From: an uncultured bacterium
GTDB lineage: Bacteria; Krumholzibacteriota; Krumholzibacteriia; Krumholzibacteriales; Krumholzibacteriaceae
NCBI GenBank assembly: GCA_964584495.1
Contig: CAZPAH010000003.1
Coordinates: 7,148 to 71,147, forward strand
Direction: 5' to 3'
Length of the DNA: 64,000 nt
Within the stretch, counting starts at the first letter, position 1. The number at the start of each line of letters is the position of its first letter. The translations under genes and the position numbers were made by a program. The notes below the pieces were generated by a model. It was given only the letters and a program-made list of their open reading frames with translations. It had not been told where the DNA came from and did no database searches. Below, piece by piece: positions 3,712 to 46,382 of the stretch.

Positions 3712-3844
3712 GGATCCTTCCTAACGTATCTCGCCGCGCGCCCGGCCGAGTAATGATTTGAATTTCCCGTATCGATGTGATAAAATCATCCTCGAAATCA
3801 AGGGACAAAATTTAACACTCCAACAATTCACAGGAGGTAGCGCC

Positions 3845-13561: not shown

Positions 13562-14008
13562 ATGAAAAAAGACGAGACGATGTTCGATATCAAGCTGCCC
13601 CAGGGCTGGGAGGATCAGACGGTGTATTTTTTCCGGGGGCCGTCGATAGACGACAGGGAGCACAAGGTCATGATGACGATCGACCGCCTCCCCCAGCAGG
13701 ACGAGATCTCGAGGTTCGCCGCCGTCAGGACGAGACCGATCGTCGAAAACCTCCAGGGAGTTGAAGTTCTCAAGGACGAGGAGACGACCCCGGCCGGGTG
13801 CTATCCCTCCTACGAGTTCGTCTACAGGTGGATCCCGGCCGACGGCATGAAGATCGTCAAGAAGCATATCTATGTTCTTCACGGCAGGTTCGGATACTGC
13901 TTCGAGGCGGAGTTCACGAAGAAATCGTACAAGATGCTGGGAGGGCAGCTTAAAAAGCTGGTGGAGAGCCTTCTGCCCGGGACATACGAGCCGGTGGACG
14001 ACCGTTAG
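13562..14008 (+). CDS. DUF1795 / Eag-like T6SS effector adaptor (chaperone) candidate
   Basis: The protein is 148 aa. Its N-terminal MFDIKLPQGWEDQTVYFFRGP matches the hallmark L-P-x-G-W-x-D-x-S/T-x-x-F of the DUF1795/DcrB-like EagR/EagT family. The size is typical for that family. Confidence 0.45.
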   Translation: MKKDETMFDIKLPQGWEDQTVYFFRGPSIDDREHKVMMTIDRLPQQDEISRFAAVRTRPIVENLQGVEVLKDEETTPAGCYPSYEFVYRWIPADGMKIVKKHIYVLHGRFGYCFEAEFTKKSYKMLGGQLKKLVESLLPGTYEPVDDR

Positions 14009-14030
14009 CAGAGCCGGCGGATGGTGCGAT

Positions 14031-14939
14031 ATGCCAGAATCGAAATTCAACAAGCAGACCGATTCAGAGGAGAAGGTCAAGCTCGACTCGGCGCTGATCT
14101 ACGCCGCGTGGAAGGACGGAGCGGCTTATACCGGCGCCCCGGCGGGGTTCGTCGTAGGAACGGTCTTCGTCGGCAACGGAGCCAAGATAGAGATAGCGGG
14201 AAAGAGCGAAGGGGGAAAATCGCTCGGGAAGATCAAGGATACGATAGACAGCAACCGTTATGCGGGCGAGTTCGAGATACCGGACGATACCGACCCGGGG
14301 GACGAGATCTATTTCACCGTGAAGATTTCGAAGAACGGGATAGACGAGGAGTCGAACCGCATACCGGTCTTCCAGGGGCCGTTGATCACCAACATGCAGT
14401 GGAGCGAGCAGGAGGCGAGGCGGGGGGACGTTCTCAAGCTGACCGCCGACGTGGAGAAGGTGGCCAACGGTACGGAGGTTCTCGTCACGATATACGAGTA
14501 CGACGAGGACGGGGCGCACGACAAGATCGCCGAGATACCGGCCGAGATAAAAGATTTCAAGCTCGAGGTGGAATGGGAGTACGAGTACCACGAGGACACA
14601 GACGAGATACCCACGACGGCGGAGATGGGAAGGTACGGGGGCTCCTACAATCCCCCCGAGTATTTCTTCACCGTGAAGTGCGGCGGGTTCGAGGCGGGGA
14701 AGGAACGGGAATCGGGGCTTTTGACCTTCAAGGACTATATAGATATCGTTCTTCGCGACGCGGCGGGCAATCCGGCCGCCGACGCGAGGTATATCGTTCA
14801 TCTTCCCGACGGATCGCAGAGGGAAGGGCAGCTCGACGCCGGCGGGCGAGCGCGGGAGGAAGGGATCGCGCCGGGGCATATCGAGGTCGAGTTTCCCGAT
14901 CTGCGACAGGTCGACCCGCTCAGCGGGGAGGAGGAGTAG
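14031..14939 (+). CDS. Hypothetical protein sharing a C-terminal ~80-aa module with the PAAR protein
   Basis: I chose the in-frame ATG at 14031 (MPESKFNK) inside ORF 13872..14939, because the upstream part overlaps the adaptor gene. The C-terminus EYFFTVKCGGFEAG...LLTFKDYIDIVLRDAAGNPAADARYIVHLPDGSQREGQLDAGG...HIEVEF aligns position-by-position with the PAAR C-terminus SYYFVVEVAGLKQRSGSLIFKDWLELELADDEGKPIAKAAYKVYLPDGSIRSGNLDDNG...VKVEY. Confidence 0.45.
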   Translation: MPESKFNKQTDSEEKVKLDSALIYAAWKDGAAYTGAPAGFVVGTVFVGNGAKIEIAGKSEGGKSLGKIKDTIDSNRYAGEFEIPDDTDPGDEIYFTVKISKNGIDEESNRIPVFQGPLITNMQWSEQEARRGDVLKLTADVEKVANGTEVLVTIYEYDEDGAHDKIAEIPAEIKDFKLEVEWEYEYHEDTDEIPTTAEMGRYGGSYNPPEYFFTVKCGGFEAGKERESGLLTFKDYIDIVLRDAAGNPAADARYIVHLPDGSQREGQLDAGGRAREEGIAPGHIEVEFPDLRQVDPLSGEEE

Positions 14940-14942
14940 ATC

Positions 14943-16595
14943 TTGCCGGGATTCGAGTACACTATAAGAAGAAGGGACACCCTCACGGCGATCGCCCGCC
15001 GCTACCGGGTGGAGGGCGGATGGCGGGCCATATGGAACGACGAGCATAACGAGGACCTGAGAAACCGCAGGCACAGCCCGAGAAGGCTCTTCGCCGGCGA
15101 CAGGGTCTACATTCCGGGGGCGAGCGGCAACAGGGGAGCGGCGCCCAGCGGGGGGACGGCGGTATTCACCGTTCCGCCCCCGTACCAGATACGCGCCGAA
15201 GACGGATTTTACCCTCCCCCCACCGAGATACCGAGGGGGGGGACGGTCAGGCTGCGCGCCGTTCATGACGATGGAGAGGAAGGCGACTGGGCCTGGGCCA
15301 CCACGAGCACGAAGATCACCCTCTCCGATGAGATGACGGACACCGTCACGGTAACGGCCGGCAACAACGCAAGCGCCGGGGAATCGGCGGAAGTCGTGCA
15401 GGTGATGTTCACCCCGGCCGCAGAAGAATCGTTGCCGCCGGTCGAAGCCGGGATTACCGTGGTAGGAGTCGCTTTCAGGCCTTCGGCGAGCCAGGGCTAC
15501 GGCTTCGACGGGATGGGCGCCAATGCGGGCGACCGGACGCCCCGCAGAAGCACGCCCCACATATCGGTGAAGAAGAATACCAGGACGAGGGTGAGGGTGG
15601 TTGTAACGGGCGGGGTCGATTCCGGGGTCCTTCACTTCACAACCGACGACAATACGACCGCCGAACCCGTGGTCGAGGGAGCGCCTTCGGCCTCCTTCAC
15701 CCTTTTCATAGACGGCAAAGAGAAGAACAAGGCCAATACTCTGATCCACGCACGGCTGGACAGCGATACGGGCCCGATTTGCGCCAGCCTGGCGGTGAAC
15801 GTCTACAGGGAGATGTCATATACGGCCAAGGTGGCCAAGGTGTGGGACAGCACCTCCGCCTCGACGGCCCTCTCTCGTCCGAACTTCAGCGTTAACACGA
15901 CCCAGACGGCCCTCAGGGGATATTACAAGCAGGCGGTGACGACGATCAGCCTTACCGATTACAGCAGCACCGGCGGTGTCGTCGACGTCCATTTCGATCC
16001 GGGGGGGGCGGGCGCGCTCGTTCTTGAAGCGGGGCGCACCTCGGCCGGCCAGCAGGCGGTCCAGGCCGCCCTGACCGGGACCGGCAAGAAGATCGTGATC
16101 GTGAAAAAGCTTTCCTGGCTCTTCAAGCTGGGCTCCGCCGCCGCGATCGGTGATAACAGGATAACGATGGCCTCGTTCATCAACGAGACGCTCATGGGGT
16201 ACATTACGGCCGGAACGTACCAATTCGGCGGGCCGGGCAATTACGAGAATATTACGGTCACCGCGACGAACCGGACCACGAAAGTGGTGACCCTTTCGGG
16301 CACCTTGACCAAGGCGCATCCGGCGACCGAAGGGATATGGTGGCCCCTCGGCGGATTGAGCGGCAATCCCGCATATGTCCAGGAAGGGACCGATACCGAG
16401 GCGAAGGTAAACGAGGTGATCGGCCACGAGTTCGGCCATGAGCTGATGAGGCTGCTCGATCTGGATCACCGGCAGAGCCTTATGTATTTCTCCAACTCGA
16501 GAACGGGCCAGGAGATAAGGTTCAAATCATTGCAGAGGCACTATCCGGACCCGGGGGGTAACGAGAGCCAGTGGGAGCTTATCAGCCGGACCTAG
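14943..16595 (+). CDS. LysM-domain protein with C-terminal HExxH zinc-peptidase-like motif (second putative effector or wall-acting protein)
   Basis: The N-terminus YTIRRRDTLTAIARRYRVEGGW...GDRVYIPG reads as a LysM fold. Near the C-terminus EVIGHEFGHELMRLLDLDH gives HExxH plus downstream D/H. The co-directional, coding-dense context favours this frame over the 561-aa antisense ORF. Confidence 0.55.
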   Translation: MPGFEYTIRRRDTLTAIARRYRVEGGWRAIWNDEHNEDLRNRRHSPRRLFAGDRVYIPGASGNRGAAPSGGTAVFTVPPPYQIRAEDGFYPPPTEIPRGGTVRLRAVHDDGEEGDWAWATTSTKITLSDEMTDTVTVTAGNNASAGESAEVVQVMFTPAAEESLPPVEAGITVVGVAFRPSASQGYGFDGMGANAGDRTPRRSTPHISVKKNTRTRVRVVVTGGVDSGVLHFTTDDNTTAEPVVEGAPSASFTLFIDGKEKNKANTLIHARLDSDTGPICASLAVNVYREMSYTAKVAKVWDSTSASTALSRPNFSVNTTQTALRGYYKQAVTTISLTDYSSTGGVVDVHFDPGGAGALVLEAGRTSAGQQAVQAALTGTGKKIVIVKKLSWLFKLGSAAAIGDNRITMASFINETLMGYITAGTYQFGGPGNYENITVTATNRTTKVVTLSGTLTKAHPATEGIWWPLGGLSGNPAYVQEGTDTEAKVNEVIGHEFGHELMRLLDLDHRQSLMYFSNSRTGQEIRFKSLQRHYPDPGGNESQWELISRT

Positions 16596-17617
16596 GCGCG
16601 CGTGGGCGTAAGGGCCGCGCGGGCACTAAAATAAATATCGCGGTTATAATATTGCTGACGGCCGTTTTTTCGGCGGTCGCCGCCGGCAGCTGCGGATGCC
16701 GGTCGGGGAAGGAGACTGACGAGTTGACGAAAATACAGGAACTGATCGAGAGTTTCAGATCGGGCGTCGAGTTCGACGGAGATGTCGAGCCCTATGTCAC
16801 GGGCGGCAAGCCGGATATGGAGGCGGTAGGCCGGTTCCGGACGGCGCTCGAAAGGGAGGATGAGCCGGTCCGGGAGCAGGTATGCCGTCTGCTCGGAGCG
16901 CTAGGCAAGAGGGTCGATCCCCTCTACGAGAAAGGGGGCGGAATGATCCGCGACAGGACGATTGTCGGCATCCTAGTGAACGACGGCCTGTCGAGGAAGG
17001 GCCCGGCGAGGGATATCTGCCTCGATCTTCTCCAGTATGCCGTGCCGGGGCATGTGCTGAAGGATTTCGGCAGGCAGATGGCCGACAATCTCAAGATGTA
17101 CCCAGACGCGACGCTGCTCCTGGTGATAGCCAAGGCGAAGGCCCCAGAGGCGAAGGATGCTGTCGATTCGCTTATGAAGATCCCAGGCTGGGCCGGGGAG
17201 ACGGAGACGAGGATCGCCGCGGCGGCCCTCGGGGACCGGGAGATAGAGCGATCGTTCATAGAACGTTTTCGCGCCGCTCAGGAACCGGCGGAAAAGGCCG
17301 AACTTGCGAAGCTGCTTGGCCTTATCGGGACGGAATCGGCCCTCAGGGAAGTGGCCGCCGCGATGCGGTCCGACATGATCATAGAGATGTCCGGGGTCTC
17401 CTCGCGATCGATCAGGATATATTTCATCGAGGCCCTCTCGTACAATTTTCCAGAGGAAACCTTTCTGTACGATAACGCGGTCAACAGCGACGAGGATTAC
17501 GCGAAGGTGGAAAAATTCTGCGAGGAGAGGTTCGGCGTGAAATGGAAAAAAGAGCGCCCCCCGTTCCTATGGATACAGGGGTATCCGACCGAGCCGCAAC
17601 CCGATATTACCCCTTGA
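16571..17617 (+). CDS. HEAT/ARM-like repeat lipoprotein (possible immunity or accessory protein)
   Basis: A basic n-region is followed by the hydrophobic INIAVIILLTAVFSAVAAGSCGC with a lipobox Cys. The remainder is predicted alpha-helical with repeats. It overlaps the upstream stop by 25 nt. Confidence 0.45.
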   Translation: MGAYQPDLGARGRKGRAGTKINIAVIILLTAVFSAVAAGSCGCRSGKETDELTKIQELIESFRSGVEFDGDVEPYVTGGKPDMEAVGRFRTALEREDEPVREQVCRLLGALGKRVDPLYEKGGGMIRDRTIVGILVNDGLSRKGPARDICLDLLQYAVPGHVLKDFGRQMADNLKMYPDATLLLVIAKAKAPEAKDAVDSLMKIPGWAGETETRIAAAALGDREIERSFIERFRAAQEPAEKAELAKLLGLIGTESALREVAAAMRSDMIIEMSGVSSRSIRIYFIEALSYNFPEETFLYDNAVNSDEDYAKVEKFCEERFGVKWKKERPPFLWIQGYPTEPQPDITP

Positions 17618-17730: not shown

Positions 17731-20250
17731 ATGGATATTACCAGCTATTCGCATGATTCCAGAACGGTTATCAAGAACGCCCAGGAGATAGCCTCTTCCT
17801 ACAGGCATGCCGAGATCGACGTGGAGCACCTGCTGATGGCGATCGTCCGCCACGAAGGGACCGAGGTGGAATCGATCCTTCACCAGATGGGTAAATCCCC
17901 GTCGTTCGTCGAGTCGATGGTCGATATCTACCTGAAGGATCAGCCCGCTAAGTCGACGGGAAGGGAGAAGGTGCCGATCTCACCGGCGGTCCAGACGGTG
18001 CTGAACAACGCCCTCGACGAGAAGGCGAAGCTCTACGATCCGCTGGTGGAGCCGGAGCATATCTTCATATCGATATTCGATCCCCGCTCGGCCCTCTCGG
18101 GCTACGTGAGGGACAAGGTAGAGATAACGAGGGAAGATATATACCGCGCCATAGCGGAGATGAAGGCGGTCGAGGAGATAGCCTCCACTCCCGGCGAGAA
18201 GGGCGAAAAGGCGGCGGCCGCGGGGGAATCACCGGAGAAGATCGCGAGGACGCTCAGGTACACCAACGACATGACCGATCAGGCGGCCGGCGGAAAATTC
18301 GATCCTATGATCGGACGCGAGGACGAGCTGCAGCAGACGATCCAGATTCTGCTTAGGCGGCGCAAGAACTCGCCAGTGCTTGTCGGCGGCGCAGGAGTCG
18401 GAAAATCGGCCATAGTGGAAGGGTTCGCCCAGGCCGTCATCGACAAGAGGGTGCCGAAGGTGCTCCAGGATGTCAAGGTGCTGGAAGTCGATATGGGCGC
18501 GATCATAGCCGGCGCCAAGTACAAGGGGGAGTTCGAGGAACGCTTCAAGGCGCTGATCGGCGATGTCGTCAAGGGGGCCGGCAAGGTCATCCTCTTTATC
18601 GACGAGATTCACACGATATGCGGAGCCGGTTCCGGCGGCGGGATGGACGCTGCGAACCTTCTCAAGCCGGCCCTCGCCCGCGGGCAGCTCAGACTGATAG
18701 GAGCCACTACGGAGGAAGAGTACACGAAGTACCTGGAAAAGGACAAGGCGCTCGTGCGCCGTTTTGAGAAGGTTAAGATCGAGCAGCCGGTTTTCGAGGA
18801 GGCCGTCACGATCGTCAGGGGCGTGGCGGACAGGTACGAGACGCATCACAAGGTCAAGTTCGACGAGGAGGCCAAGATCACCTCGGTGAAGCTGGCGCAG
18901 AGGTACCTCTCCGAGAGGAACCTTCCCGATATAGCCCTCGATATAATCGACGAGGCCGCGTCGGAATTTTCCGTCAAGCAGGAGCTTGCCGGCGAGAAGA
19001 TAAAGTCGCTCACCAAGCATTTCGAGGATATCGATAAATTGATCGGCGGAAAGGGCGAGGGGCTCGGCGAGACGTACGACGCTCTCACGAAGGACCTCGA
19101 CACGCTCCAGAAGTACTGGGGGCACAGGCTCGACAGGGAATACGAGCAGAGCCTCTCCTTCGACAAGATAAAGAAGGAGAATCTACCCGATATCATGGCG
19201 AAGAAGAAGGAGCTGTTCGAAGATTTGAAGGGTGTCGTGGAGAAGCTGGAGCCGGTCATATTCGACAGCGACATCGGCGCCGTGATCGCCCGGAGAACGG
19301 GGATCCCCGTGTCGAAGATGATGACGGCCGAGAAGGACCGGCTGATCAACATGGAGGAGTTCCTGGGCCGCAAGATCATCGGCCAGGAAAACGCGATCAA
19401 GGCGGTATGCAACGCCGTCAGGAAGTCGAGGGCCGGGCTTAAGCTGCCGTACCGCCCCGTGGGCTCGTTTCTGTTTCTCGGGCCGACGGGAACCGGCAAG
19501 ACCTATCTTCCGAAGCTCTTGGCCGACTTCCTCTTCGACGATAAGAACGCGATCGTCCGGATGGATATGTCGGAATTCATGGAGACTCATTCGGTCGCCA
19601 AGATGATCGGTGCGCCGCCGGGGTATGTCGGGTACGAGGCGGGGGGGCTTCTGACCGAGGCTGTTCGCAAGAAGCCTTTTTCGATAGTGCTGCTGGACGA
19701 GGTGGAGAAGGCGCATCCGGACGTATTCAATATTCTGCTTCAGCTCCTCGACGACGGCCGCTTGACCGACGGACAGGGACGCACCGTCGATTTCTCCAAC
19801 ACGATAGTGGTATTGACTTCGAACTATGCCGCTGATAAGATTCTCGAAGCAGATCGCGAGGGCAGGGAACCGGACATGGAAGAGATACGCTCGTTCCTGT
19901 TCGGGAAATTCAGGCCGGAGCTCCTGAACCGTCTCAACGAGATCATAGTTTTTCATCCATTTTCGCAGGAGCAGGTCGAGAAGATCGCCGCGCTCGAGTT
20001 CAAGAATCTCTGCGCCCTTCTGGAGGATCTCAACATCGAGGCGTCCCTCTCCGACGAGGCGACCAAGAAGCTCGCCAGGGAGGGGTACACGGTGGAGCTG
20101 GGTGCAAGGCCGATCCAGAGGATAATCGAGAAGCAGATTATCAACAAGCTGTCGGTGGAGATCATCACGGGCGAGGTAAAGCCGGGCGACGAGGTGAAGA
20201 TCGACATCAAGGACGATGATTACGTGTTTACCGTGGTAGAAAATAAATAG
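17731..20250 (+). CDS. clpV: T6SS AAA+ ATPase ClpV (TssH)
   Basis: Clp N-domain, then two AAA modules: Walker [10 protein letters not shown] in D1 and GPTGTGKT in D2, a sensor/arginine-finger region, and the ClpB-like [13 protein letters not shown] motif. Its position directly upstream of tssB, tssC and hcp supports the call. AAGGAG Shine-Dalgarno is present. Confidence 0.85.
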
Positions 20251-20277
20251 GATGAAGCGTTTAAAAAGGAGGAATTG

Positions 20278-20718
20278 ATGGCAAAGTTCATACTGGGAGC
20301 CACGGAACGGGTCAAGAAAGACGACTCGATTCCGGTCGAGCTTCTTCCATCGAACAAGTTGTTGTACGTGGCCAAGCTCAACAACGATGAGGACAGCGAA
20401 CCGGACCCGGTGCGTTGCAACAATCTGAAGGAGGTTTTCGATAAATTCCGTCCTTCATTCGAATGCGAGCTGGAATCGGCCGAAGGAGAGCCTATCAACG
20501 CGGATTTCCATATAAAGGCGATGAAGGACTTCACGCCGAAGGAGCTTATCGAGAACAACGATTACCTTTCGACGACCTACTACAGCAAGGAGATCCTTGC
20601 CGATCTCGACAAGCAGCTCAAGAAGAATAACGCACTAAAGAAGACTTTGAAGGACAAGGACAAGAAGGAAGCTCTTCTTAAGGCGGCGCAGTATTACATA
20701 GAACTTCTAACCGAATAG
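20278..20718 (+). CDS. tssB: T6SS contractile sheath small subunit TssB
   Basis: A ~147-aa acidic/lysine-rich protein lying between clpV and the large sheath gene, preceded by an AAGGAGG Shine-Dalgarno. Size and position match TssB. Sequence-level identity with known TssB was not verified by eye. Confidence 0.55.
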   Translation: MAKFILGATERVKKDDSIPVELLPSNKLLYVAKLNNDEDSEPDPVRCNNLKEVFDKFRPSFECELESAEGEPINADFHIKAMKDFTPKELIENNDYLSTTYYSKEILADLDKQLKKNNALKKTLKDKDKKEALLKAAQYYIELLTE

Positions 20719-20736
20719 AAGAGTGAGGTGATATAA

Positions 20737-22164
20737 ATGGGCGACGAAGAAAAGGAATTGCAGCCTCAGGCGCAGGAAGCGGCGAAGGAAAAGCAGGCCG
20801 CGGCGCCGGGCGAAAAGATCTCCGACGACGAGTTCGCCGAGATCTTGAGCGAATCGTTCGGGAAGTTCGACGATCTGGCCAAATTGCTTCCTTCATTCAA
20901 GACTGCCGACGGCGACCTCGTCCGGGGCGTCGAGTGGCTCGATCCCAAGAAAGACTTCCAGAGAAAGGAATTTCTCTCCAAGCCGAATTTCGCCAAGCAG
21001 AGAAAGCTTCTCGCGGAGAGGCTGAAGATATGGCGTGAGGCGCTGACCGGGGCGGACGATCCCGACCAGATCCGCAAGGGCCTGAACGAGAAGATGACCA
21101 AGCTCGAGGCTAATCTCGACAAGAACATGAAGCGCGTTCTGCGGGCGAGCCGCGATATGGAAACGGCCTACAGGGCGATAGACAAGTTCTTCGCCAACGC
21201 GCAGCTGGAGCCGGACGAGAAGGTCAACGCCTGGTTCGCCAACGTCAGCCCCGACCAGCTGATGGATCCCGACGACAAGGAAAAATTCGAGCAGCTCGCC
21301 AAGGCGGTCTCCGATCTTTATCGCGAATGGTCGATCAAGGACTGTTTCTCGATGGCCGTCGTGCCCGGCTGGGTGGGATCGGTGGAGAATATCGACACCC
21401 TCGCGCGCCAGCTCGGCCTGCCGAACAAGCTGCATATCATGACCGACCTGCCGAACTTCGAGAAGTTCGACGAGGTCATGGATATGCTGGAGGACCCCGC
21501 ATACGCGGGGCTGGCGGGGATCGACGACTTCAAGCAGTATATGTCGGTGTTCGCCAATTACGTACAGGCGAGGGAAGCCAACCAGTACGAGGACGAAGAC
21601 ATGTGGATTCCGCCCTCGGCGGTGGTGGCGGGAAAGCTGTACCAGGGGGACTCGACCACCGGCATGCAGCAGCCGTCGGCCGGCTTCAAGTACGGCAAGA
21701 TCGCCGAATCGAAGTACATCAAGTTCAGGGCCAACCAGCCCGATGCGAGCAAGATCAACGAAAAAGGCGTCAACACCATGGTCAACTTCGAGGGTTCCGT
21801 GGTGGCGATGGGGTCTTCCACGCTATCGACCAAGGAGACATTCAATATTTACTCCATCCGCAGGACCTACGATTACGTCTACAAGACGCTGCGCAACTAC
21901 CTCAACAAGCAGACCTTCTCTGTGATCGACCAGAAGTTCATTGACGCCCTCAGGCGGGATATAGACAAGTTCATGAAGGCTATATCTGGGGGCGACAATA
22001 TTCTGGAGGATTACAAGATAGAGATTTTCGCGGACGAGGAGATGCGCAAGAGACAGGAGGTTGATATCAAGGTCGCCCTTAATCCGAAATATCCCGCGCG
22101 GACGTTCAACATAGAGTTCGCCGCATGGAATGAGGATAACCAGATCAACGTGAAAGACAAGTAA
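20737..22164 (+). CDS. tssC: T6SS contractile sheath large subunit TssC
   Basis: A 475-aa protein immediately after tssB and before hcp, with the size and position typical of TssC (VipB). The call rests mainly on synteny. Confidence 0.55.
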   Translation: MGDEEKELQPQAQEAAKEKQAAAPGEKISDDEFAEILSESFGKFDDLAKLLPSFKTADGDLVRGVEWLDPKKDFQRKEFLSKPNFAKQRKLLAERLKIWREALTGADDPDQIRKGLNEKMTKLEANLDKNMKRVLRASRDMETAYRAIDKFFANAQLEPDEKVNAWFANVSPDQLMDPDDKEKFEQLAKAVSDLYREWSIKDCFSMAVVPGWVGSVENIDTLARQLGLPNKLHIMTDLPNFEKFDEVMDMLEDPAYAGLAGIDDFKQYMSVFANYVQAREANQYEDEDMWIPPSAVVAGKLYQGDSTTGMQQPSAGFKYGKIAESKYIKFRANQPDASKINEKGVNTMVNFEGSVVAMGSSTLSTKETFNIYSIRRTYDYVYKTLRNYLNKQTFSVIDQKFIDALRRDIDKFMKAISGGDNILEDYKIEIFADEEMRKRQEVDIKVALNPKYPARTFNIEFAAWNEDNQINVKDK

Positions 22165-22208
22165 GTACAAACCGCCTGTTCGCAGGCGCAGGAAAGGAGA
22201 ACGGGAAG

Positions 22209-22613
22209 ATGGCAAGAAGACCAATCCTTGAGATCGATGGTGTCGCGTACAAGAACGTGTATGAAGTTTCGTACAGGCTCTACACCGCCAAGGATGAGAC
22301 GGGCCGCCCCTCGGACCGCGCCCACGCCGGTGTAATCAAGATTAAGAGGGAATCGGACGAGACCTGCGATATAGCCAGGTGGGCGATGGATTCCTCCAAG
22401 CCGAACTGGAAAAACGGCAAGGTGATGTTCAAGAATCCCGATGACGCGACGATGAAGGAGCTTGCCTGGGAGAACGGGTTCATCACGGCGTACGCCGAGA
22501 GCGTTCCCCATATCAAGAACAATCCCGACGAGCAGATGTGGGAAGAGTTCGAGATCTCCTGCCAGAAGCTTACGATAAGCGACGCCGAGATCGACAACCT
22601 CTGGGAAGAGTAA
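22209..22613 (+). CDS. hcp: T6SS tube protein Hcp (TssD), short Bacteroidetes/T6SS-iii-like form
   Basis: 134 aa. The sequence GRPSDRAHAGVIKIKRESDE...GKVMFKN...AYAESV shows the beta-sandwich pattern of short Hcp/TssD. It is preceded by a strong Shine-Dalgarno (AGGAGAA) and followed by a small hairpin before vgrG. Confidence 0.6.
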   Translation: MARRPILEIDGVAYKNVYEVSYRLYTAKDETGRPSDRAHAGVIKIKRESDETCDIARWAMDSSKPNWKNGKVMFKNPDDATMKELAWENGFITAYAESVPHIKNNPDEQMWEEFEISCQKLTISDAEIDNLWEE

Positions 22614-22732
22614 ATCCTGGGCTTGGCAACCGTACCCGGTTGCGGGCCGCGTGAAAATAAACCGATGTCTCGTCAGGCCGCGATCCGGCAAGACCGGGTC
22701 CGGCCCGGCGGACGTCCGGTCGGGAGTGAAAA

Positions 22733-24520
22733 ATGGCCGTACTGGAAACTCCGGCCGAATGCCTGATTCGGGTCGATAACCAGGAAATCAAGTTCAATAT
22801 ATCGGGCATCCAGCTGGATCAGTTCATCGACACCCACCATCACCTTGTCCTCCGCATCCAGCAGGTAGGGAAGAAGGATGCGGGCAAGGATTTCGACGAT
22901 CCCGGCAAATACTCGGGATTTCTCGGGCAGAGCATCGCCCTTACGATCAATCCGACCGGGGGGGTGGTGGACCCTTCCCGCGCTCTGGAATTCATAGGCG
23001 TGATTACCGATGTGCAGCTCGAGAACAGCATCGATGGACTGAACACCGTGTTGATCCACGCCGCTTCGTCGACGATCAGCATGGATGGAGCGGCGAAGAA
23101 CGCCCACTATTACGACAAGAGCGCCAGCGATATCATAGGCGCGATCGTGGGCAACTACCCGATAACGGTTGGAAAGATCGAGTCTACGAAGGACAAGTTC
23201 AAGTTCGACACGCAGTACCGAGAAAGCGACTTCGATTACATCATGCGCCTCGCCCGGGGGGCCGGAATGTTCGCCTACTACACGGGGCGCGATTTCAACC
23301 TGACCCCCGCCAACAGCAGCAACACCGTCGACCTCGTGTGGCGCGAGAATCTAGGGGCGTTCAGGATGGGACTCGGCACGGCGCCTGTCGAGTTCAAGTC
23401 GGAAGTATACAATTACGAGCAGAAGAAGACCTATTCGCAGGACAGCCAGTCGATATCCCAGCAGGCGTCTCTCTCGGAGCAATCGAAGGTCTCGCCCCAG
23501 GCATCGAAGAAGATATTCAAGGAGTCGAGCTTCTCGTCCTCCCCCAAGACGGTCGAGGACGCCAAGGCGCTCGACAAGACGCTCGAAAACGAACGCCGCA
23601 GGGCGATGGGCTCCATGATCCGCTGCCGGGGGCAGTCGATAGTCCCGGCCGTGACGATCGGCTCCTGCATAAAAATCGAGGGGATGGACAAGCTCGACGG
23701 GCAGTACTGGGTCAAGAGCGTCCGCCATATATTCGATGACAGCGGGAAGTACCATAACACGTTCGTCTGCACGCCCCTCGACATAGCGTATCCCGGAAAG
23801 AGGGAGACGGGCAAGGACCTCGAGACGGGCGAGGAATCCATCAAGGCGACCGCCAGCATAGAGAACGTGGAGGAGGCGAAGAGGAAACCGGTTCTGGGGC
23901 TTCACGTGGCGAGGGTGGTCGATCTGAACGATCCGGAGAGCCTCGGGCGGATCAAGATCAGCTACCCGTGGCTCGATTCCCAGCAGACCGCCTGGGTGCG
24001 GCTAATGGTCCCCCACGCCGGCAAAGACCGCGGCTGGTACGCCCTCCCCGAGCTCGATGACGAGGTGCTGATCGGCTACGAGCACGGCAATACGGATCAC
24101 CCGGTCGTCCTGGGGTGCCTGTACAACAAGGAAAATTCCCCGATGCAGGAGGCCGTGTCGAGCGATAACGACATCAAGATGTTCATGACCCGCAGCGGCA
24201 ACAAGATCGTTTTCAACGACAAGGACGGCTCGGAGCAGATCCTGATATCCCAGAAGGAAGGCAAGAACCAGATCGTCCTTGATATATCGGGACCGTCGAT
24301 ATCGATCACGACGGAGGGCGATATCTCGATCAAGGGAAATAACCTCGCTGTCGAGGCGCAGGAGGGGATCACGATGAAGGCGTCCTCCGACGTGAAGATC
24401 GAAGGGGCCAATATAGAGATAAAGGCCCAGGGAAACATCACCTCGGAAGCGGCCGCCAACAACGATATCAAGGGCAACGCCCAGGTCAACGTAAAGGGCG
24501 GTATGGTAAACCTTAATTAA
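22733..24520 (+). CDS. vgrG: T6SS spike VgrG (TssI), gp27/gp5-like with C-terminal beta-helix
   Basis: A gp27-like N-terminal region, then the gp5/baseplate-V-like OB region (WVRLMVPHAGKDRGWYALPELDDEVLIGYEHGNTDHPVVLG). The C-terminus has repetitive ISIKGNNLAVEAQEGITMKASSDVKIEGANIEIKAQGNI beta-helix repeats. Confidence 0.8.
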   Translation: MAVLETPAECLIRVDNQEIKFNISGIQLDQFIDTHHHLVLRIQQVGKKDAGKDFDDPGKYSGFLGQSIALTINPTGGVVDPSRALEFIGVITDVQLENSIDGLNTVLIHAASSTISMDGAAKNAHYYDKSASDIIGAIVGNYPITVGKIESTKDKFKFDTQYRESDFDYIMRLARGAGMFAYYTGRDFNLTPANSSNTVDLVWRENLGAFRMGLGTAPVEFKSEVYNYEQKKTYSQDSQSISQQASLSEQSKVSPQASKKIFKESSFSSSPKTVEDAKALDKTLENERRRAMGSMIRCRGQSIVPAVTIGSCIKIEGMDKLDGQYWVKSVRHIFDDSGKYHNTFVCTPLDIAYPGKRETGKDLETGEESIKATASIENVEEAKRKPVLGLHVARVVDLNDPESLGRIKISYPWLDSQQTAWVRLMVPHAGKDRGWYALPELDDEVLIGYEHGNTDHPVVLGCLYNKENSPMQEAVSSDNDIKMFMTRSGNKIVFNDKDGSEQILISQKEGKNQIVLDISGPSISITTEGDISIKGNNLAVEAQEGITMKASSDVKIEGANIEIKAQGNITSEAAANNDIKGNAQVNVKGGMVNLN

Positions 24521-24528
24521 GGACGACG

Positions 24529-24903
24529 ATGGAGTACCTGTCGCTGCCGTTCACCCTCAAGAAGGGATACCTGAAAAAGTCCGATCTGCGAAGATCCCTT
24601 TCGGACTCCATTGGCCTGATTCTGAGCGCACGGAAGGGATCGATGCCCTTCGATCCCGATTACGGGTGCGACCTGTGGGACAAGGAGTATTCGGACCTTT
24701 TCATGGCGAACCGTTCCGAGGTGCAGGGGAGCGTCCGCAACGCGATCAACAAGTACGAAGCCAGGCTGTTCAATGTCTCGGTCTCGCTGATGAATATCGA
24801 TACCGGTCCCAACCACCCCTTGGGCATCGCCGTGAAGGTGATCGGCAATTATCGTGACGGGAAGGAAGAGAGAAGGTTTGAAGAAACATTCAGCATCGGG
24901 TGA
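24529..24903 (+). CDS. tssE: T6SS baseplate wedge protein TssE (gp25/GPW family)
   Basis: The 124-aa protein LSDSIGLILSARKGSMPFDPDYGCDLWDKEYSDL...RNAINKYEARL matches the GPW_gp25 lysozyme-like fold conserved in TssE. Confidence 0.75.
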   Translation: MEYLSLPFTLKKGYLKKSDLRRSLSDSIGLILSARKGSMPFDPDYGCDLWDKEYSDLFMANRSEVQGSVRNAINKYEARLFNVSVSLMNIDTGPNHPLGIAVKVIGNYRDGKEERRFEETFSIG

Positions 24904-24904
24904 G

Positions 24905-26572
24905 ATGAAAGGCGAGAAGCCGAAGACGGCGGACGAGATATTTCACGGCATGCACCGGGAGCTACGGGCCTGGAATCCCGACATCCCCGAATCGTCCGAC
25001 CGGATGGACCCGATCCTGCGCATAATACTCAAGCTCTATGCCGGCCAGCTGGAGGCGATCGACAGAAAGATAGTGAACACGTGGACGGTGGCGTCGAACG
25101 CGCTAATCAAGTCGCTCTGCCCCGAAAGCATGCGATGGCCCGTTCCCGCCTTCACGGTGATGCAGGCGGAGCCCTCCGACCCGGTCATCAAGGTCGATCC
25201 CCAGACGCAGTTTTTCTACAAGGAGGAGCGCGACGACGGGCAGACGTTCTTCTTCTCCTCCCTTCGCACGGAAAAGCTTTTGAAGGCGCGGCTGAGGAAT
25301 CTCTATTTCACGGCGGGCGATAACGTACACGATCTTTCGCCCCCGCCGCCCGACGGCATGCAGGTCTCCTCCAGGATTCAGCCGTCCACCTTCTCCGGCC
25401 GGAACGCTGCGGTCTACATGGCGGTGGAGCATGACGGCCCCGTCGATGATTTCGAGGACTGCATTATTTTTCTCCAGGGCAATGTCAATCTTCTCAAGCA
25501 GCTGCGGTGGTCGAGATGGCTGCCATGCATAGACGGCGATTTCTACGAGGCGGGAGGTTTCTGCCCCGGCGCCGCGGGAACCATCGATGATATCTTCTCG
25601 GTCGGCGGCGAGACGATGGACTGGGGCGGGCTGAGACGGAGCAGCGATCTTTTCAAGCCGCTCGAGCACAGCTTCATGGTGATACCGAAAGATTTCGTGA
25701 CCTCGTGGAGGGCGGGTGATCCCGACAAGAAGTTTTTAAGCGCGCTCGAACGGGCCGGGCACGCCGGGCCGGCGAAAGAAGAGAAGCTTTTCTGGATCAA
25801 GGTGCTGCTTCCCTCGGGCGGCGACCGTTCCGTCTTCCAGTCGTCGTTCAGGATGCATTTCGATTGCTTCATAGCCGTCAACAAGTACGAAAGGACCCTT
25901 TTCAAGCATACCGGGGGCAACCGGCTAGTCGAGATCGAGATCCCGGACGATCTGAAGAATATCCTGAAGATCATTTCCGTCGCCGATTCGAATGGCAGGG
26001 CCTATATTCCCCGCCACGAGGCCCTGAACGAGAAGGACGGCAAATTCTACAACCTTCTCGAGCAGAACGGCCGGCTGTGCCTGTGGTTCGATTTTTCATC
26101 GGAGATCGAGCTGCCGCCCGATTCGATCACGGTCAATTATTCCGTCACGGCGGGCAAGGACGCCAACGGCATCTCAGCGGGAAAGGTCAGCGAGCTGTAC
26201 GAAAGTCATCCCGGGATCGTTTCCCTGAAGAATATCATCCCGGTTTCCGGGGCCGTTCCGGCGAAGACGGAGGAGCAGATAATCACCGAGATATCGGCGC
26301 GTCTTCGCGGGCGGGACAGGGCCATGTCGTTCGACCAGATCGTCAACTGGACGAGGACATTCGACGAGCGGATAACGCAGGCCGAATGCGAGAAAGGCGT
26401 GATCGTCACGGATGGGGGCGTGAGGAAATGCGTGGTGGTCAAGGCGACGGTCCGCGAGAAGGATTTCCATTCGGCTGACGAGATAGAGCTTCTCAAGACG
26501 CGGCTCGGTTCGTTTCTGAAGGCGCGGACATCGATAAACAGTCAGTTCAAGCTGGAGATTGTAAAGACGTGA
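24905..26572 (+). CDS. tssF: T6SS baseplate protein TssF (gp6-like)
   Basis: A ~556-aa protein after tssE, with size and position as for TssF. I used the internal ATG at 24905, 1 nt after the tssE stop; the 24854 start would overlap tssE by 50 nt. Confidence 0.55.
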   Translation: MKGEKPKTADEIFHGMHRELRAWNPDIPESSDRMDPILRIILKLYAGQLEAIDRKIVNTWTVASNALIKSLCPESMRWPVPAFTVMQAEPSDPVIKVDPQTQFFYKEERDDGQTFFFSSLRTEKLLKARLRNLYFTAGDNVHDLSPPPPDGMQVSSRIQPSTFSGRNAAVYMAVEHDGPVDDFEDCIIFLQGNVNLLKQLRWSRWLPCIDGDFYEAGGFCPGAAGTIDDIFSVGGETMDWGGLRRSSDLFKPLEHSFMVIPKDFVTSWRAGDPDKKFLSALERAGHAGPAKEEKLFWIKVLLPSGGDRSVFQSSFRMHFDCFIAVNKYERTLFKHTGGNRLVEIEIPDDLKNILKIISVADSNGRAYIPRHEALNEKDGKFYNLLEQNGRLCLWFDFSSEIELPPDSITVNYSVTAGKDANGISAGKVSELYESHPGIVSLKNIIPVSGAVPAKTEEQIITEISARLRGRDRAMSFDQIVNWTRTFDERITQAECEKGVIVTDGGVRKCVVVKATVREKDFHSADEIELLKTRLGSFLKARTSINSQFKLEIVKT

Positions 26573-27498
26573 TGATCCGAAAAGACGACCTGATGCCCGA
26601 TTTCACGAGCCGCAGGAGCCGGTTCCACTACCTGACGGCGATCAACCTGCTGGAAAGCATGGGAGTCCCCCTCAAGAACATATATATGAAGGCGGTGGGC
26701 GTCTACGAGAACTACCGCGGAGAGATACACGGCCAGAGCCCGGAGCCGGGAACGCCGGTGACCGCCGATACGCAGATCAGCCTCGATATCGGATGGCACA
26801 GCGCGGTCGATTACATGCCGTACCAGTTCTTCTACGGTCTCCAGGGGATACGCGACTCCGGCCATGAGTGGGAGGATAACGCCCGGTCGCTCATGGCTCC
26901 ATTCGACGCGGCTATGATACGTTACGAGGCCGCCATGCGGTTTTACGCCCTCAAGTACGAATTCGGCATTATCGACGCCGCGCATCTTGTAAGGTTCATG
27001 GCGCTGTTCGAGTACGATCTGGAGGGCGAATCGTTCGATATAGACGAGATCATGCTGATGGCCGCGATCCTTCCCTCCCTCTACCAGTGGAGCGGAAATT
27101 CCGAGGTCGTCTCCGGGATCCTCGGCCGGCTGTTCGGGTACAGGGTGACGATCAACGAGAACGTGAGGTCCTCGACCCCTATTCCCGACCCGCTCCGTTA
27201 CAGGCTGGGGTCCAAGACCGGGCGGTTGGGCAGGGAGACGATTCTCGGCCGGTCTTTCCAGGAGTGCGATTCGACCTACGAAGTGGTCGTCGGCGGCGTT
27301 CCGCCGGCCGATGTGAGCCGTCTTCTTCCCGGCGGCGGGACGAGGCGCAGGATAGAGAGGATGTTGAGCTACTGCATGCCGGGCGATCTCGACTACCGGA
27401 TCAGGGTCGAGGTCGACCGTGAAAAGGCTCGGGGCGGGGCGGAAGGATACCTGGGATATTCGTCTTTCATCGGCGCCGCGGGCGGAGGTATCTCTTGA
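26569..27498 (+). CDS. tssG: T6SS baseplate protein TssG (gp7-like)
   Basis: A ~309-aa protein whose start overlaps the tssF stop (ATGA), in the canonical tssF-tssG order. Confidence 0.5.
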   Translation: MMIRKDDLMPDFTSRRSRFHYLTAINLLESMGVPLKNIYMKAVGVYENYRGEIHGQSPEPGTPVTADTQISLDIGWHSAVDYMPYQFFYGLQGIRDSGHEWEDNARSLMAPFDAAMIRYEAAMRFYALKYEFGIIDAAHLVRFMALFEYDLEGESFDIDEIMLMAAILPSLYQWSGNSEVVSGILGRLFGYRVTINENVRSSTPIPDPLRYRLGSKTGRLGRETILGRSFQECDSTYEVVVGGVPPADVSRLLPGGGTRRRIERMLSYCMPGDLDYRIRVEVDREKARGGAEGYLGYSSFIGAAGGGIS

Positions 27499-27547
27499 CA
27501 TCGATGAGCGATAGCCATAAAGTCCTATTAAATTTCGAGGTAAGACA

Positions 27548-28996
27548 ATGAGTGATTTCAAGTTAAATTCGATGAACTGGCAGGACGGCATGCTCCTGTC
27601 GATGAGCCACCTAAGGGACCAGGACCGCTACTTCGAAGAGCTTTCGAGGTGGTACGCCGCCGGGGCGAACGACAATTACGGACTGGTCAAGAAGACGGCC
27701 GAGCCTTCCCTGAAGCTGGACGCGACGCTCAGCGGAAGCTCCTTGAAGGTCGAGGTTAAGCGCTGCCAGGCGGTTCTGCCGAACGGCATGTTCGTCGAGT
27801 TCAACGAAGCGCTCAGCGGCGGCTTCGTCCTGAAGGCGCAGGCGGATATCAACGAGACGCACGTGCCGGTTTTCCTCGGGATCGATCCGCGCGAAAGAAA
27901 GCAGGTCGGCCAGAGCGATCCCTCGGAGGAAATCCCCCGGATCCCCTACGAGATACCGAATTATATCGTGACCCTCGTCGATCCGCCCAACCTTCCACAG
28001 GATCATTACCTTCAGATCGAGCTTCTGAACGTCAGCGGCTCGGAGGTTTCGCGGGCGCCCGATTATTTTCCTCCGGCGGTCAATATCAATTCGGACGACA
28101 GGCTGGCCGCGATAGCGGTGGACTACCGCAACCGAATGGAGAACCTTCTCAAGCTGTCCTCGCGCGCCCTCATGGCCGCCTCTTCGTCAAGCGGTCTCGA
28201 GGGGGCCTCGACGAAGCTTCAGAGCGCCTTCCGGGAGACGGCGTACTACCTGGTCTACCATATGGCGTCCCACCTCGACGATTTCATCGTCGGGCGCAAC
28301 TCCCCGCACCCGGGCATGATGATAGTCCAGTTCAAGAAGCTGTTCCGCGTGGTATCCTCGCTGCTCAACCTGCAGCCGGGGCTGAAGGACTACCTCAACG
28401 AAAAATTCTTCACGAAGGAAGGCAAGTCGGAGATTGGAGCTTTCCTCTCGTCCGTCGACGCGTTTCTTCTCTCCGAATACGATCACAGGGACATCGGGAC
28501 GCAGATAAAGATGATCGACAAGATCCTCGGGGTCCTGCGAGCCTTGATGGCGTTCCTGTCGAAGACGAGGCTGGACCAGCTCAGCGATCAGGCGGTCGCC
28601 ACAGACACTCTGACCTACCAGGGAAAGACGTACAAGAACCTCGATGTGGGCGGCAGCCGCCTCGAGGAGGTGGGGGAGCTGAGCTACCTGGTGATGGAGC
28701 TGGCCGAGCCGTGTCCCATGGCGGATGTCCTGGCGCTTATAAACAAGGAGCTTTTCTCCGAGGGCGAGTGGCGCAGCATGCAGGTCCGCCTCGGGCTCAA
28801 CGACGCCCGGGGGCTAGGTGAGACCGATCCGGTCGCCGTGGATACGACCAGCTACAACAATAAGGTGGTGCTTCACCCGCTAGATATGCTTCAATCCCCG
28901 TCGGTGAAGCAGGTGACCCTGATTATGAGGGGTATGCCCGACACGCAGAAGCTGGCCGGTCTCGGAAAGACCGATTTGATACTGTATACCGCATGA
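27548..28996 (+). CDS. tssK: T6SS baseplate protein TssK
   Basis: The N-terminus NSMNWQDGMLLSMSHLRDQDRYFEE matches the conserved TssK start (W-x-E/D-G-M-x-L...Q-H-x-Q-Q-x-D-R-Y). 482 aa. Confidence 0.65.
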   Translation: MSDFKLNSMNWQDGMLLSMSHLRDQDRYFEELSRWYAAGANDNYGLVKKTAEPSLKLDATLSGSSLKVEVKRCQAVLPNGMFVEFNEALSGGFVLKAQADINETHVPVFLGIDPRERKQVGQSDPSEEIPRIPYEIPNYIVTLVDPPNLPQDHYLQIELLNVSGSEVSRAPDYFPPAVNINSDDRLAAIAVDYRNRMENLLKLSSRALMAASSSSGLEGASTKLQSAFRETAYYLVYHMASHLDDFIVGRNSPHPGMMIVQFKKLFRVVSSLLNLQPGLKDYLNEKFFTKEGKSEIGAFLSSVDAFLLSEYDHRDIGTQIKMIDKILGVLRALMAFLSKTRLDQLSDQAVATDTLTYQGKTYKNLDVGGSRLEEVGELSYLVMELAEPCPMADVLALINKELFSEGEWRSMQVRLGLNDARGLGETDPVAVDTTSYNNKVVLHPLDMLQSPSVKQVTLIMRGMPDTQKLAGLGKTDLILYTA

Positions 28997-32199: not shown

Positions 32200-32709
32200 A
32201 TGAGAAAGAGGAATCTGCTGGTCGTCGCCGTTCTGCTCGTGTCGCTCCTGCCGGCGGGAGCCTTCGCCGGCAAGGTTGTCCTGCCGGAGGAGACGGCGAT
32301 CAAGGTCAAATTCGATCCCGCGATAAAGATCAATTCCGGCAAGCTTCAGCCGGGGTTGACCCTGACGATCTTCCTCGCCCAGGACGTGAAGATCGGGGGG
32401 GCTACGATCATCGAGGCCGGGGCCGAGGGTACCGCGAAGGTGGAGGAGATAGTTCCCGCCTCCAGGCCGGGCGATCCCGGAAAGATCAAGATCTCGTTCG
32501 TCGATCTCGGCACGAAAGGAAAGTACCACGCCGCCGATAACGCGAGGATCAAGCTGGGCGGCTTCGTGGAGAACGAGGGGAAGGGCAGGAAGCTCCTCTC
32601 CTGGGTCTTTGTCCTCGGGCTCTTCATCAAGGGCTCGCAGGGCGAGATCGATAACATGCTCGAATATCCCGCCATCATAAAAGAGACGACGGTGCTTGAG
32701 ACGTCCTGA
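32200..32709 (+). CDS. Small secreted (periplasmic) protein, last gene of the + strand T6SS block
   Basis: Signal peptide MRKRNLLVVAVLLVSLLPAGAFA, with no lipobox Cys. It is 169 aa and predicted beta-rich. Confidence 0.4.
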   Translation: MRKRNLLVVAVLLVSLLPAGAFAGKVVLPEETAIKVKFDPAIKINSGKLQPGLTLTIFLAQDVKIGGATIIEAGAEGTAKVEEIVPASRPGDPGKIKISFVDLGTKGKYHAADNARIKLGGFVENEGKGRKLLSWVFVLGLFIKGSQGEIDNMLEYPAIIKETTVLETS

Positions 32710-32721
32710 CCCCTTAAGGGA

Positions 32722-34236: not shown

Positions 34237-34249
34237 CGTTATTCTCCTT

Positions 34250-37777: not shown

Positions 37778-37830
37778 CGTGCCCTCCTTCTCGTTTTAAT
37801 CGATGAAAGCAGATACATTAACATTTTAGA

Positions 37831-39216: not shown

Positions 39217-39436
39217 TGAGCGGTTCCCGTTATGGAAACTGAAGTTCCCCGCAAACGCGGACCCTCCCCGAGCCCGTACGGCGGCGGGCGAGGGGTACAA
39301 CTGCATGCGGGATCTTTTTATCCCGTCGAAATCTACCGCAGAGGCGCGGCCAAGTCAATCCTGAATCTTCCGGCACGCAGGGCCGCCCGGCCTCTGAACG
39401 GCCTCGGTCCTTCCAGGGTCGAAGGTTGGATGATCC

Positions 39437-45049: not shown

Positions 45050-45080
45050 CGGGATCATATCGAACAATAGGAGAATCGTT

Positions 45081-46334: not shown

Positions 46335-46382
46335 GATCCAGGGGGAATCAGGAGATTTCATCAATGCGGAGGAACAAGGAGA

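Follow-up and report, generated by a model that had tools for sequence, protein, structure and literature searches.

In a review of August 2026, four type VI secretion system (T6SS) subtypes were distinguished, with T6SS-iii restricted to the Bacteroidota. Bongiovanni et al. found no T6SS-iii outside this phylum in more than 20,000 complete genomes, and reported that tssN and tssP are nearly ubiquitous in Bacteroidota systems, with tssN placed between tssK and tssG. The origin of the two unrelated T6SS membrane complexes, TssJLM and TssNOPQR, has been left open in the literature, where three scenarios have been proposed. Here we analyse a T6SS gene cluster in a stretch of 64,000 nucleotides (hereafter the window, to which all coordinates refer unless otherwise stated) from an uncultured bacterium of the Krumholzibacteriaceae, phylum Krumholzibacteriota (contig CAZPAH010000003.1, positions 7,148 to 71,147). 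We consider it likely that the cluster belongs to a distinct, so far undescribed clade of T6SS, present in metagenome-assembled genomes (MAGs) labelled Krumholzibacteriota, Zixibacteria, Latescibacterota, Calditrichota and Ignavibacteriales, and that it is anchored by two membrane proteins encoded after tssK, here called X309 and Y736, and not by TssJLM or TssNOPQR. The machine itself is known; what is new is a conserved sister clade with a putative third type of anchor. No description came to light when the literature was searched for T6SS, VgrG or T6SS-iii in combination with these phyla, although papers beyond the searched literature are possible.

Nine closely spaced open reading frames (ORFs) of the same direction were verified at 17731–28996, and family support was obtained for each of their products, ClpV, TssB, TssC, Hcp, VgrG, TssE, TssF, TssG and TssK (Table 1). 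An earlier note on this DNA, made from the sequence, had named the same nine-gene core, and its descriptions of a short Hcp, a gp25-like TssE and Walker motifs in both AAA modules of ClpV were borne out (Walker A at residues 219, GGAGVGKS, and 584, GPTGTGKT; Walker B at 287 and 652), as was the conserved TssK N-terminus given as WxDGM...DRY, which reads WQDGM...DQDRY. The tssF–tssG junction, which it described as an ATGA overlap, is instead GTGA (GTG 26569 over TGA 26570–26572), or an ATG at 26572 sharing one base, and the GC content of the window, put at ~62%, was measured as 58.8% (57.4% for the T6SS region). The cluster, which spans ~7822 to 39306, is wider on both sides than the core correctly delimited by that note, which had missed the two membrane-protein genes after tssK, a downstream kinase/lipoprotein operon and upstream PAAR, effector and immunity genes.

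In BLASTP comparisons, ClpV was 30% identical to the Bacteroides T6SS-iii ClpV (1e-128) and 33% identical to the TssH of T6SS-i, TssC matched the Bacteroides TssC at 29% identity (5e-55) with no match to the TssC of T6SS-i, and TssK matched the Bacteroides TssK-position protein at 28% identity (1e-8). The window TssF had no match in a Pfam search; it matched the annotated TssF of Bacteroides finegoldii by BLASTP (8e-8, with a second segment) and that of Tenacibaculum, which gave matches in 21 loci, and the orthologue in locus L046 gave a weak PF05947 match. Its start is most likely ATG 24905 and not GTG 24854, where the ORF opens; the former lies 2 bases past the TssE stop and yields 555 aa, as in the orthologues. 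Searches of Protein Data Bank (PDB) sequences with TssF and TssK gave nothing useful. With a two-subunit TssB/TssC sheath, an Hcp tube, a VgrG spike, a TssE/F/G/K baseplate and ClpV, the general features of a T6SS are present, and the window encodes a complete contractile T6SS that is probably functional.

A scan of one genome per species yielded 38 related loci (L001–L038), all in MAGs (TssC 68–89% identical). The nearest of these (TssC 80–89% identical) are mostly labelled Krumholzibacteriota or unclassified, and the remaining labels are Zixibacteria, Latescibacterota, Calditrichota, "FCB group" and Ignavibacteriales, consistent with the non-Bacteroidota host suggested earlier. The window proteins themselves are singletons, so this organism has been sampled once. 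When the window proteins were mapped onto these loci, the order ClpV-TssBC-Hcp-VgrG-TssEFGK-X309-Y736 proved near-invariant across several phyla, with clpV directly 5' of tssB in 37 of the 38. Conservation is very uneven: over phyla that differ in name, TssC, TssB, Hcp and ClpV have a median identity to the window of 77–80%, compared with ~48–56% for VgrG, TssE, TssF, TssG, TssK, X309 and Y736. The GC content of the related loci ranges from 45 to 61%, yet TssC is 66–88% identical within the clade; given that identity is kept over so wide a range, long residence under strong constraint would fit the history of the clade better than recent transfer. The TssC tree does not separate Ignavibacteriales-labelled from Zixibacteria-labelled MAGs, a pattern suggestive of bins with wrong labels or of horizontal transfer. 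In the complete genome of a Zixibacteria member (CP070756.1, locus L042), a divergent glycosyltransferase gene lies 5' of tssC in place of clpV-tssB (1–2186 of that locus), and the T6SS cluster there seems to be split.

The core was compared with T6SS-iii loci of B. finegoldii (L039) and Tenacibaculum (L049), a T6SS-i locus of Pseudoalteromonas (L041), and two loci of extracellular contractile injection systems (eCIS), namely the whole locus of Azospirillum (L040) and a short segment surrounding a Deinococcus sheath gene (L053). A neighbour-joining (NJ) tree of TssC with bootstrap was built on few references, among them five Bacteroidota sequences from plasmid records, with no T6SS-ii or T6SS-iv sequences. 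TssC identity is 40–75% within the Bacteroidota, 26–31% (about 28%) between this clade and the Bacteroidota, and 14–17% between this clade and T6SS-i. Bootstrap support in the NJ tree is 100 for this clade, 100 for the Bacteroidota and 100 for their union. On these identities and bootstraps, the core is placed as the sister group of Bacteroidota T6SS-iii, a separate clade and not a nested member, which is the opposite of the nesting that the earlier note had named as the outcome that would count against it.

The likeness to T6SS-iii claimed in the earlier note thus holds for the sheath and tube, which belong to Bacteroidota-type families (PF17541 for TssC and PF17642 for TssD) common to both, but not for membership of the subtype, as the clade is a sister and TssN/O/P/Q/R are also undetected. 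BLASTP matches to T6SS-iii were obtained for eight core proteins (ClpV, TssB, TssC, Hcp, VgrG, TssE, TssF and TssK), Hcp is short in both, and TssA, TssJ, TssL and TssM are found in neither. In contrast to Bacteroidota loci, no TssN/O/P/Q/R or DUF5457 was detected in the loci of this clade; this clade carries an attached conserved operon with a kinase and a CsgG-like protein; its hosts lie outside the Bacteroidota, except for the Ignavibacteriales-labelled MAGs; and its gene order is near-invariant, whereas that of Bacteroidota loci is highly variable.

With T6SS-i, the cluster shares the overall machine and gene logic, PAAR and Eag-type loading, and a PP2C phosphatase and a Ser/Thr kinase near the cluster, comparable to the PpkA/PppA pathway. 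However, BLASTP against L041 matched only ClpV, VgrG and, weakly, TssG, with no match for TssB, TssC, Hcp, TssE, TssF or TssK; its TssA, TssC and Hcp likewise found no match. No PF05943 or PF05638 match was obtained at E<=0.01, and no ImpA_N (TssA) match on the scanned window proteins. TssJ, TssA and TagF of T6SS-i were not detected here, and no FHA-domain protein was seen.

We also considered whether the cluster could encode a domesticated phage tail or a contractile injection system of the extracellular kind, and not a cell-anchored T6SS. In a PDB sequence search, the matches of TssC were weak (E 8e-5 to 6e-3) and confined to sheaths of phages and of the Afp type, with none from T6SS-i, and VgrG-related and baseplate models also match weakly. 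However, ClpV adjoins a split TssB/TssC sheath, and TssK, TssF and TssG are encoded, while the conserved genes were found to include neither a tape measure nor a tail terminator (DUF4255), a tail fibre or an Afp15-type ATPase, for which the eCIS locus L040 provides the contrast. TssC groups with Bacteroidota T6SS-iii, away from the sampled eCIS sheaths; placement with phage or eCIS families was the other outcome that the earlier note had held to be contrary to its proposal. An injection system or phage tail was therefore rejected, and we regard it as hardly credible.

The search for a known membrane complex covered ~20–64 kb per genome. At a tblastn threshold of E<1, TssN/O/P/Q/R and DUF5457 from two Bacteroidota loci matched neither the window nor any of 45 related loci, BLASTP with the Bacteroides and Tenacibaculum TssN/O/P/Q/R references was negative, and hhalign against the Bacteroidota proteins returned probabilities of at most 1%. 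The Pfam models for TssN, TssO and TssR had no match on the flanking window proteins, with the TssN and TssO models working on a Bacteroides positive control. The presence of TssN/O/P/Q/R as unannotated genes was rejected on these four kinds of search. TssJ, TssL, TssM and TssA were undetected by Pfam and NCBIfam scans and by BLASTP against the T6SS-i locus, in agreement with the earlier note.

These results bear on the possibility that the cluster is an ordinary T6SS-iii, with TssN/O/P/Q/R encoded elsewhere or too diverged to be seen, and X309 and Y736 as lineage-specific accessory or regulatory proteins. The core proteins are indeed closest to T6SS-iii, T6SS-iii loci are often split, with tssO, tssQ and tssR undetectable in 23–31% of Bacteroidota systems (Bongiovanni et al.), and the stretch examined per genome was limited, as given above. 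However, in Bacteroidota tssN sits between tssK and tssG, whereas here tssG, tssK and the X309 gene are contiguous, with no TssN or TssP signal in the window or the 45 loci; X309 has one transmembrane helix, compared with five in TssN; TssC falls outside the sampled Bacteroidota clade at 26–31% identity; and X309 and Y736 are conserved as strictly as the baseplate genes. We therefore regard an ordinary T6SS-iii as improbable, and return to a separate clade anchored by X309 and Y736.

The X309 gene lies directly 3' of tssK and is followed by that of Y736 in every related locus extending that far. The AlphaFold2 (AF2) model of X309 has a pLDDT (predicted local distance difference test) of 84.6, and that of Y736 a pLDDT of 84. 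X309 has no Pfam, NCBIfam or PDB sequence match, a fold search gave generic helical matches only, and its family is small: a set of 1.84 billion representative proteins contained just 40 relatives. Weak matches to Pfam DUF5454 were seen in 9 of 65 family members (best 0.0021); a scan of two Bacteroidota T6SS loci did not find DUF5454, and the literature yielded no mention of it. In Y736, the GTPase occupies residues 30–310, followed by the transmembrane helix (~340–358), a helical domain (365–621) and a beta domain (625–724), the last two predicted to be periplasmic. The G1 (GHENTGKT), G3 (DYNG) and G4 (TKAD) motifs are invariant in 64 sequences, which qualifies the domain as a small GTPase. 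It differs from DO-GTPase2 (PF19993) and the Ras-, Rag- and Arf-like GTPases in being fused to a transmembrane helix and a ~370-aa periplasmic region inside a T6SS operon; PF19993 was defined from conflict systems, not secretion systems. Two metagenome contigs from the European Nucleotide Archive (L047 and L048) encode a 322-aa protein distantly resembling X309 (E 1e-9 against the profile of the family) followed by an 818-aa Y736-type GTPase, and preceded by an ORF faintly similar to the TssK C-terminus (E 0.001). There may be a form of the system that has diverged even further.

The arrangement raises the question of whether X309 and Y736 share ancestry with TssL and TssM but have diverged to an extreme degree, in which case a T6SS-i-type complex would be ancestral to the T6SS-iii lineage and its replacement by TssNOPQR would have occurred only in the Bacteroidota. 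The order tssK-X309-Y736 matches tssK-tssL-tssM of the T6SS-i reference locus, and the domains follow one plan: a helical cytoplasmic protein held at the inner membrane by its tail, and then an inner-membrane protein in which a nucleoside triphosphatase (NTPase) domain is combined with a membrane helix, a periplasmic helical domain and a beta domain. A P-loop, DxxG, and TKAD followed by L..G[FY] occur in both NTPases; within residues 159–215 of Y736, the G4 region LVVTKADTLPGY resembles VxLTKADLIAGF of the TssM consensus, although the full profile–profile comparison is not significant. In addition, 28 of the 64 members of the Y736 family have weak matches to IcmF-related_N (PF14331), the best at 3.9e-5 and that of the window protein at 0.22. 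However, hhalign of Y736 against a 31-sequence TssM profile returned a probability of 5%, with the NTPase regions unaligned, and that of X309 against TssL 1.3%; the window proteins have no significant DotU or IcmF match in Pfam or NCBIfam; the Y736 NTPase precedes a single transmembrane helix, whereas that of TssM lies between helices 2 and 3; and many GTPases have an [NT]KxD motif. Identification of X309 as TssL and Y736 as TssM by sequence was thus rejected, with nothing significant in PDB sequence and profile searches, hhalign or NCBIfam, and we consider such a homology unlikely, though less so than an ordinary T6SS-iii.

Since the homology tests were negative or weak, X309 and Y736 are treated by analogy: most likely they act as an inner-membrane anchor or switch, with X309 a candidate inner-membrane anchor of TssL-like position and topology, and Y736 a candidate TssM-like membrane component or switch. 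Several points weigh against a separate clade anchored by these proteins. Their membrane-anchor role is deduced from synteny and architecture only, and both the putative anchor and the function are predicted here from genes and models. The periplasmic part of Y736, at ~370 aa, is half that of TssM, and an outer-membrane partner is not established. TssNOPQR-like or TssJLM-like genes could lie elsewhere in the genomes, beyond the ~20–64 kb examined. The TssC tree has the sparse sampling of references given above, the taxon labels are those of MAG records, among which there may be mis-binned contigs, and the effector and immunity assignments are based on motifs only.

By homology, TssE/F/G/K with VgrG and PAAR make up the baseplate and spike, Hcp the tube and TssB/TssC the sheath, and ClpV recycles the contracted sheath. 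Strict synteny, topology and predicted folds suggest that X309 and Y736 would serve as the anchor instead of TssJLM or TssNOPQR. More speculatively, the Y736 GTPase could be a GTP-dependent switch for assembly or firing, and the transmembrane Ser/Thr kinase with envelope lipoproteins could constitute a sensing pathway like PpkA/TagQRST. Two HExxH metallopeptidase-like toxins with peptidoglycan-binding-like motifs would be loaded via PAAR and a DUF1795 (Eag-like) chaperone, and the exported lipoprotein encoded after each toxin would provide immunity. Peptidoglycan-directed toxin cargo together with immunity points to contact-dependent killing of neighbouring diderm bacteria via the cell wall; Hcp and effector secretion and contact-dependent killing by this system are accordingly predictions from the gene content.

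We give about even chances to a further proposal, that the clade represents a fifth T6SS subtype with a third, independent envelope complex made of Y736, X309, and CsgG-like and tetratricopeptide repeat (TPR) proteins and gated by its own transmembrane Ser/Thr kinase, or else that X309 and Y736 are relics of TssL and TssM. If they are relics, the clade would be a missing link, and a TssJLM-type anchor would be older than the divergence of T6SS-i from T6SS-iii. Both cases are relevant to the origin of T6SS membrane complexes, and a sister clade of T6SS-iii in which neither complex was detected, with a new syntenic pair in the position of tssL and tssM, offers a concrete test system for the scenarios of origin. 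With this system, the ecology predicted for Krumholzibacteriota, Zixibacteria and related sediment lineages would come to include contact-dependent antagonism. It connects a secretion machine with a Ras-like GTPase and a eukaryote-like kinase, and brings two large, unclassified metallopeptidase-like toxin candidates.

Table 1. Genes of the T6SS cluster and its attached operon, with family matches (E-values) and other evidence.
Feature	Position	Strand	Evidence and remarks
PAAR spike-tip protein	7822–8970	+	PF05488 PAAR_motif, 3.4e-10; NF033420, 3e-6; Gly/Lys-rich linker, C-terminal prealbumin-like domains
Candidate effector 1, 1107 aa	8990–12313	+	HEMGH zinc-peptidase motif at residue 813; without signal peptide
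Candidate immunity protein 1, lipoprotein	12310–13518	+	LTAAC lipobox; weak beta-propeller (PQQ/BamB-like) similarity
DcrB/DUF1795-like, candidate Eag-type effector chaperone	13562–14008	+	PF08786, 2.1e-5, just under cut-off
303-aa protein, possible adaptor	14028–14939	+	C-terminal domain common with PAAR protein; without PAAR motif
Candidate effector 2, 550 aa	14943–16595	+	Partial LysM-like start; HEFGH zinc-peptidase motif at residue 495
Candidate immunity protein 2, exported or lipoprotein	16571–17617	+	Weak HEAT-repeat similarity
ClpV/TssH sheath-recycling AAA+ ATPase, 839 aa	17731–20250	+	AAA_2, AAA, Clp_N, ClpB_D2-small
TssB, small sheath subunit	20275–20718	+	PF05591, 6e-9; 29% to Bacteroides TssB-position protein, 2e-16
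TssC, large sheath subunit, Bacteroidota-type family	20737–22164	+	PF17541 (TssC/DUF5458), 5.5e-67
Hcp/TssD tube protein, 134 aa	22209–22613	+	PF17642, 1e-21; 30% to Bacteroides TssD
VgrG/TssI spike	22733–24520	+	Phage_GPD and Phage_base_V; NF033848, 9e-51
TssE, gp25-like baseplate wedge	24529–24903	+	GPW_gp25 PF04965, 1e-12; TIGR03357, 7e-10
TssF baseplate subunit, 555 aa	24905–26572	+	BLASTP to annotated Bacteroidota TssF
TssG baseplate subunit	26569–27498	+	PF06996, 4.7e-20; TIGR03347, 7e-19
TssK baseplate-to-membrane connector	27548–28996	+	TIGR03353, 7e-14 (under the model's cut-off)
X309, 309 aa	29013–29942	+	All-helical cytoplasmic domain (~260 aa) and one C-terminal transmembrane helix
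Y736, 736 aa	29960–32170	+	N-terminal Ras/Rag-like GTPase, transmembrane helix, periplasmic region
Small secreted protein, 169–177 aa across genomes	32200–32709	+	After Y736 in four other genomes, 44–67%; no family match
Lipoprotein with Laminin_G_3 domain	32722–34236	-	Leucine-rich repeat protein in its place in Zixibacteria loci
Secreted protein, 373 aa	34250–35371	-	36–60% identity in four genomes; no Pfam or PDB match
TPR lipoprotein	35361–36731	-	Weak CsgG-like part; 46–63% identity in four genomes
CsgG-like exported protein, 349 aa	36728–37777	-	PF03783, 2.3e-13; 54–72% in four genomes; also adjoins T6SS in L031
Transmembrane Ser/Thr protein kinase	37831–39306	-	Pkinase, 2.5e-45, and periplasmic PEGA domain

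The genes upstream of clpV encode the presumptive cargo, whose toxin and immunity roles are inferred from motifs, export signals and gene position. Relatives of the PAAR protein are present in 30 of the 38 related loci, and its C-terminal part matches the position of the 303-aa gene in most of them. Effector 1, which has no Pfam, NCBIfam or PDB match, carries near its N-terminus an OmpA-like peptidoglycan-binding motif, read by eye. Its gene is variable (14/38 loci), with HExxH kept in 11 of 11 homologous segments, and the gene for immunity protein 1 co-varies with it (12/38 loci). The DcrB/DUF1795-like gene occurs in 28 of the 38 (median 44% identity). Effector 2 is encoded in seven of the 38 loci, HExxH being kept in 7/7 homologous segments, and the gene for immunity protein 2 is found in the same seven. 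An overlapping ORF at 14021–15049 (+) was rejected as a wrong frame because its product is Arg-rich nonsense; the real gene is in the frame of 13872–14939.

Downstream of the Y736 gene, the next 10 kb were fetched in four genomes (Zixibacteria CP070756.1, a Zodletone Krumholzibacteriota MAG, CAZTHK010000006 and JAHLKV010000001). The window genes at 32200–39306 are conserved there at 36–72% identity, and conservation ends at the kinase. The operon at 32722–39306 is convergent to the T6SS genes, with the kinase gene at its end, and is conserved in all five contexts examined; the kinase is kept at the same position in L042, L043, L045 and L046, and is T6SS-linked in L031. A PDB sequence search with the CsgG-like protein gave nothing useful.

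Directly 5' of the PAAR gene, at 6336–7592 (-), lies a gene for a Ser/Thr phosphatase of the PP2C type that has an fn3 domain and a transmembrane helix. The protein shares 28% identity (1e-18) with the PppA-like phosphatase of L041, and none of the 38 related loci keeps it at this position. The phosphatase and the conserved kinase could make up a phosphorylation switch. Adjoining the Ser/Thr kinase gene, the stretch 39437–42152 (-) encodes a histidine kinase (HATPase_c) together with a response regulator that depends on sigma-54 (Response_reg, Sigma54_activat and HTH_8), and by analogy with VasH in Vibrio this pair may exert transcriptional control of the T6SS. In the Zixibacteria locus L042, three response-regulator genes lie at the corresponding place.

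Permeases of the MacB/FtsX type are encoded at 1288–3711 (+) and within 42665–47069 (+), the second with an HlyD-family adaptor (45081–46334) and an ABC (ATP-binding cassette) ATPase (46383–47069). Both are probably unrelated systems of the efflux or lipoprotein-release type; TagS/TagT of the Pseudomonas T6SS pathway are of the MacB/FtsX kind. The gene at 3758–6271 (+) encodes a secreted 837-aa protein with matches to Por_Secre_tail (1.4e-4), FlgD_ig (5e-8) and CHU_C (7e-4). The domains of type IX secretion system (T9SS) type reported earlier at C-termini are thus represented by a weak match to a T9SS sorting domain in this product, which fits an envelope of the FCB type.

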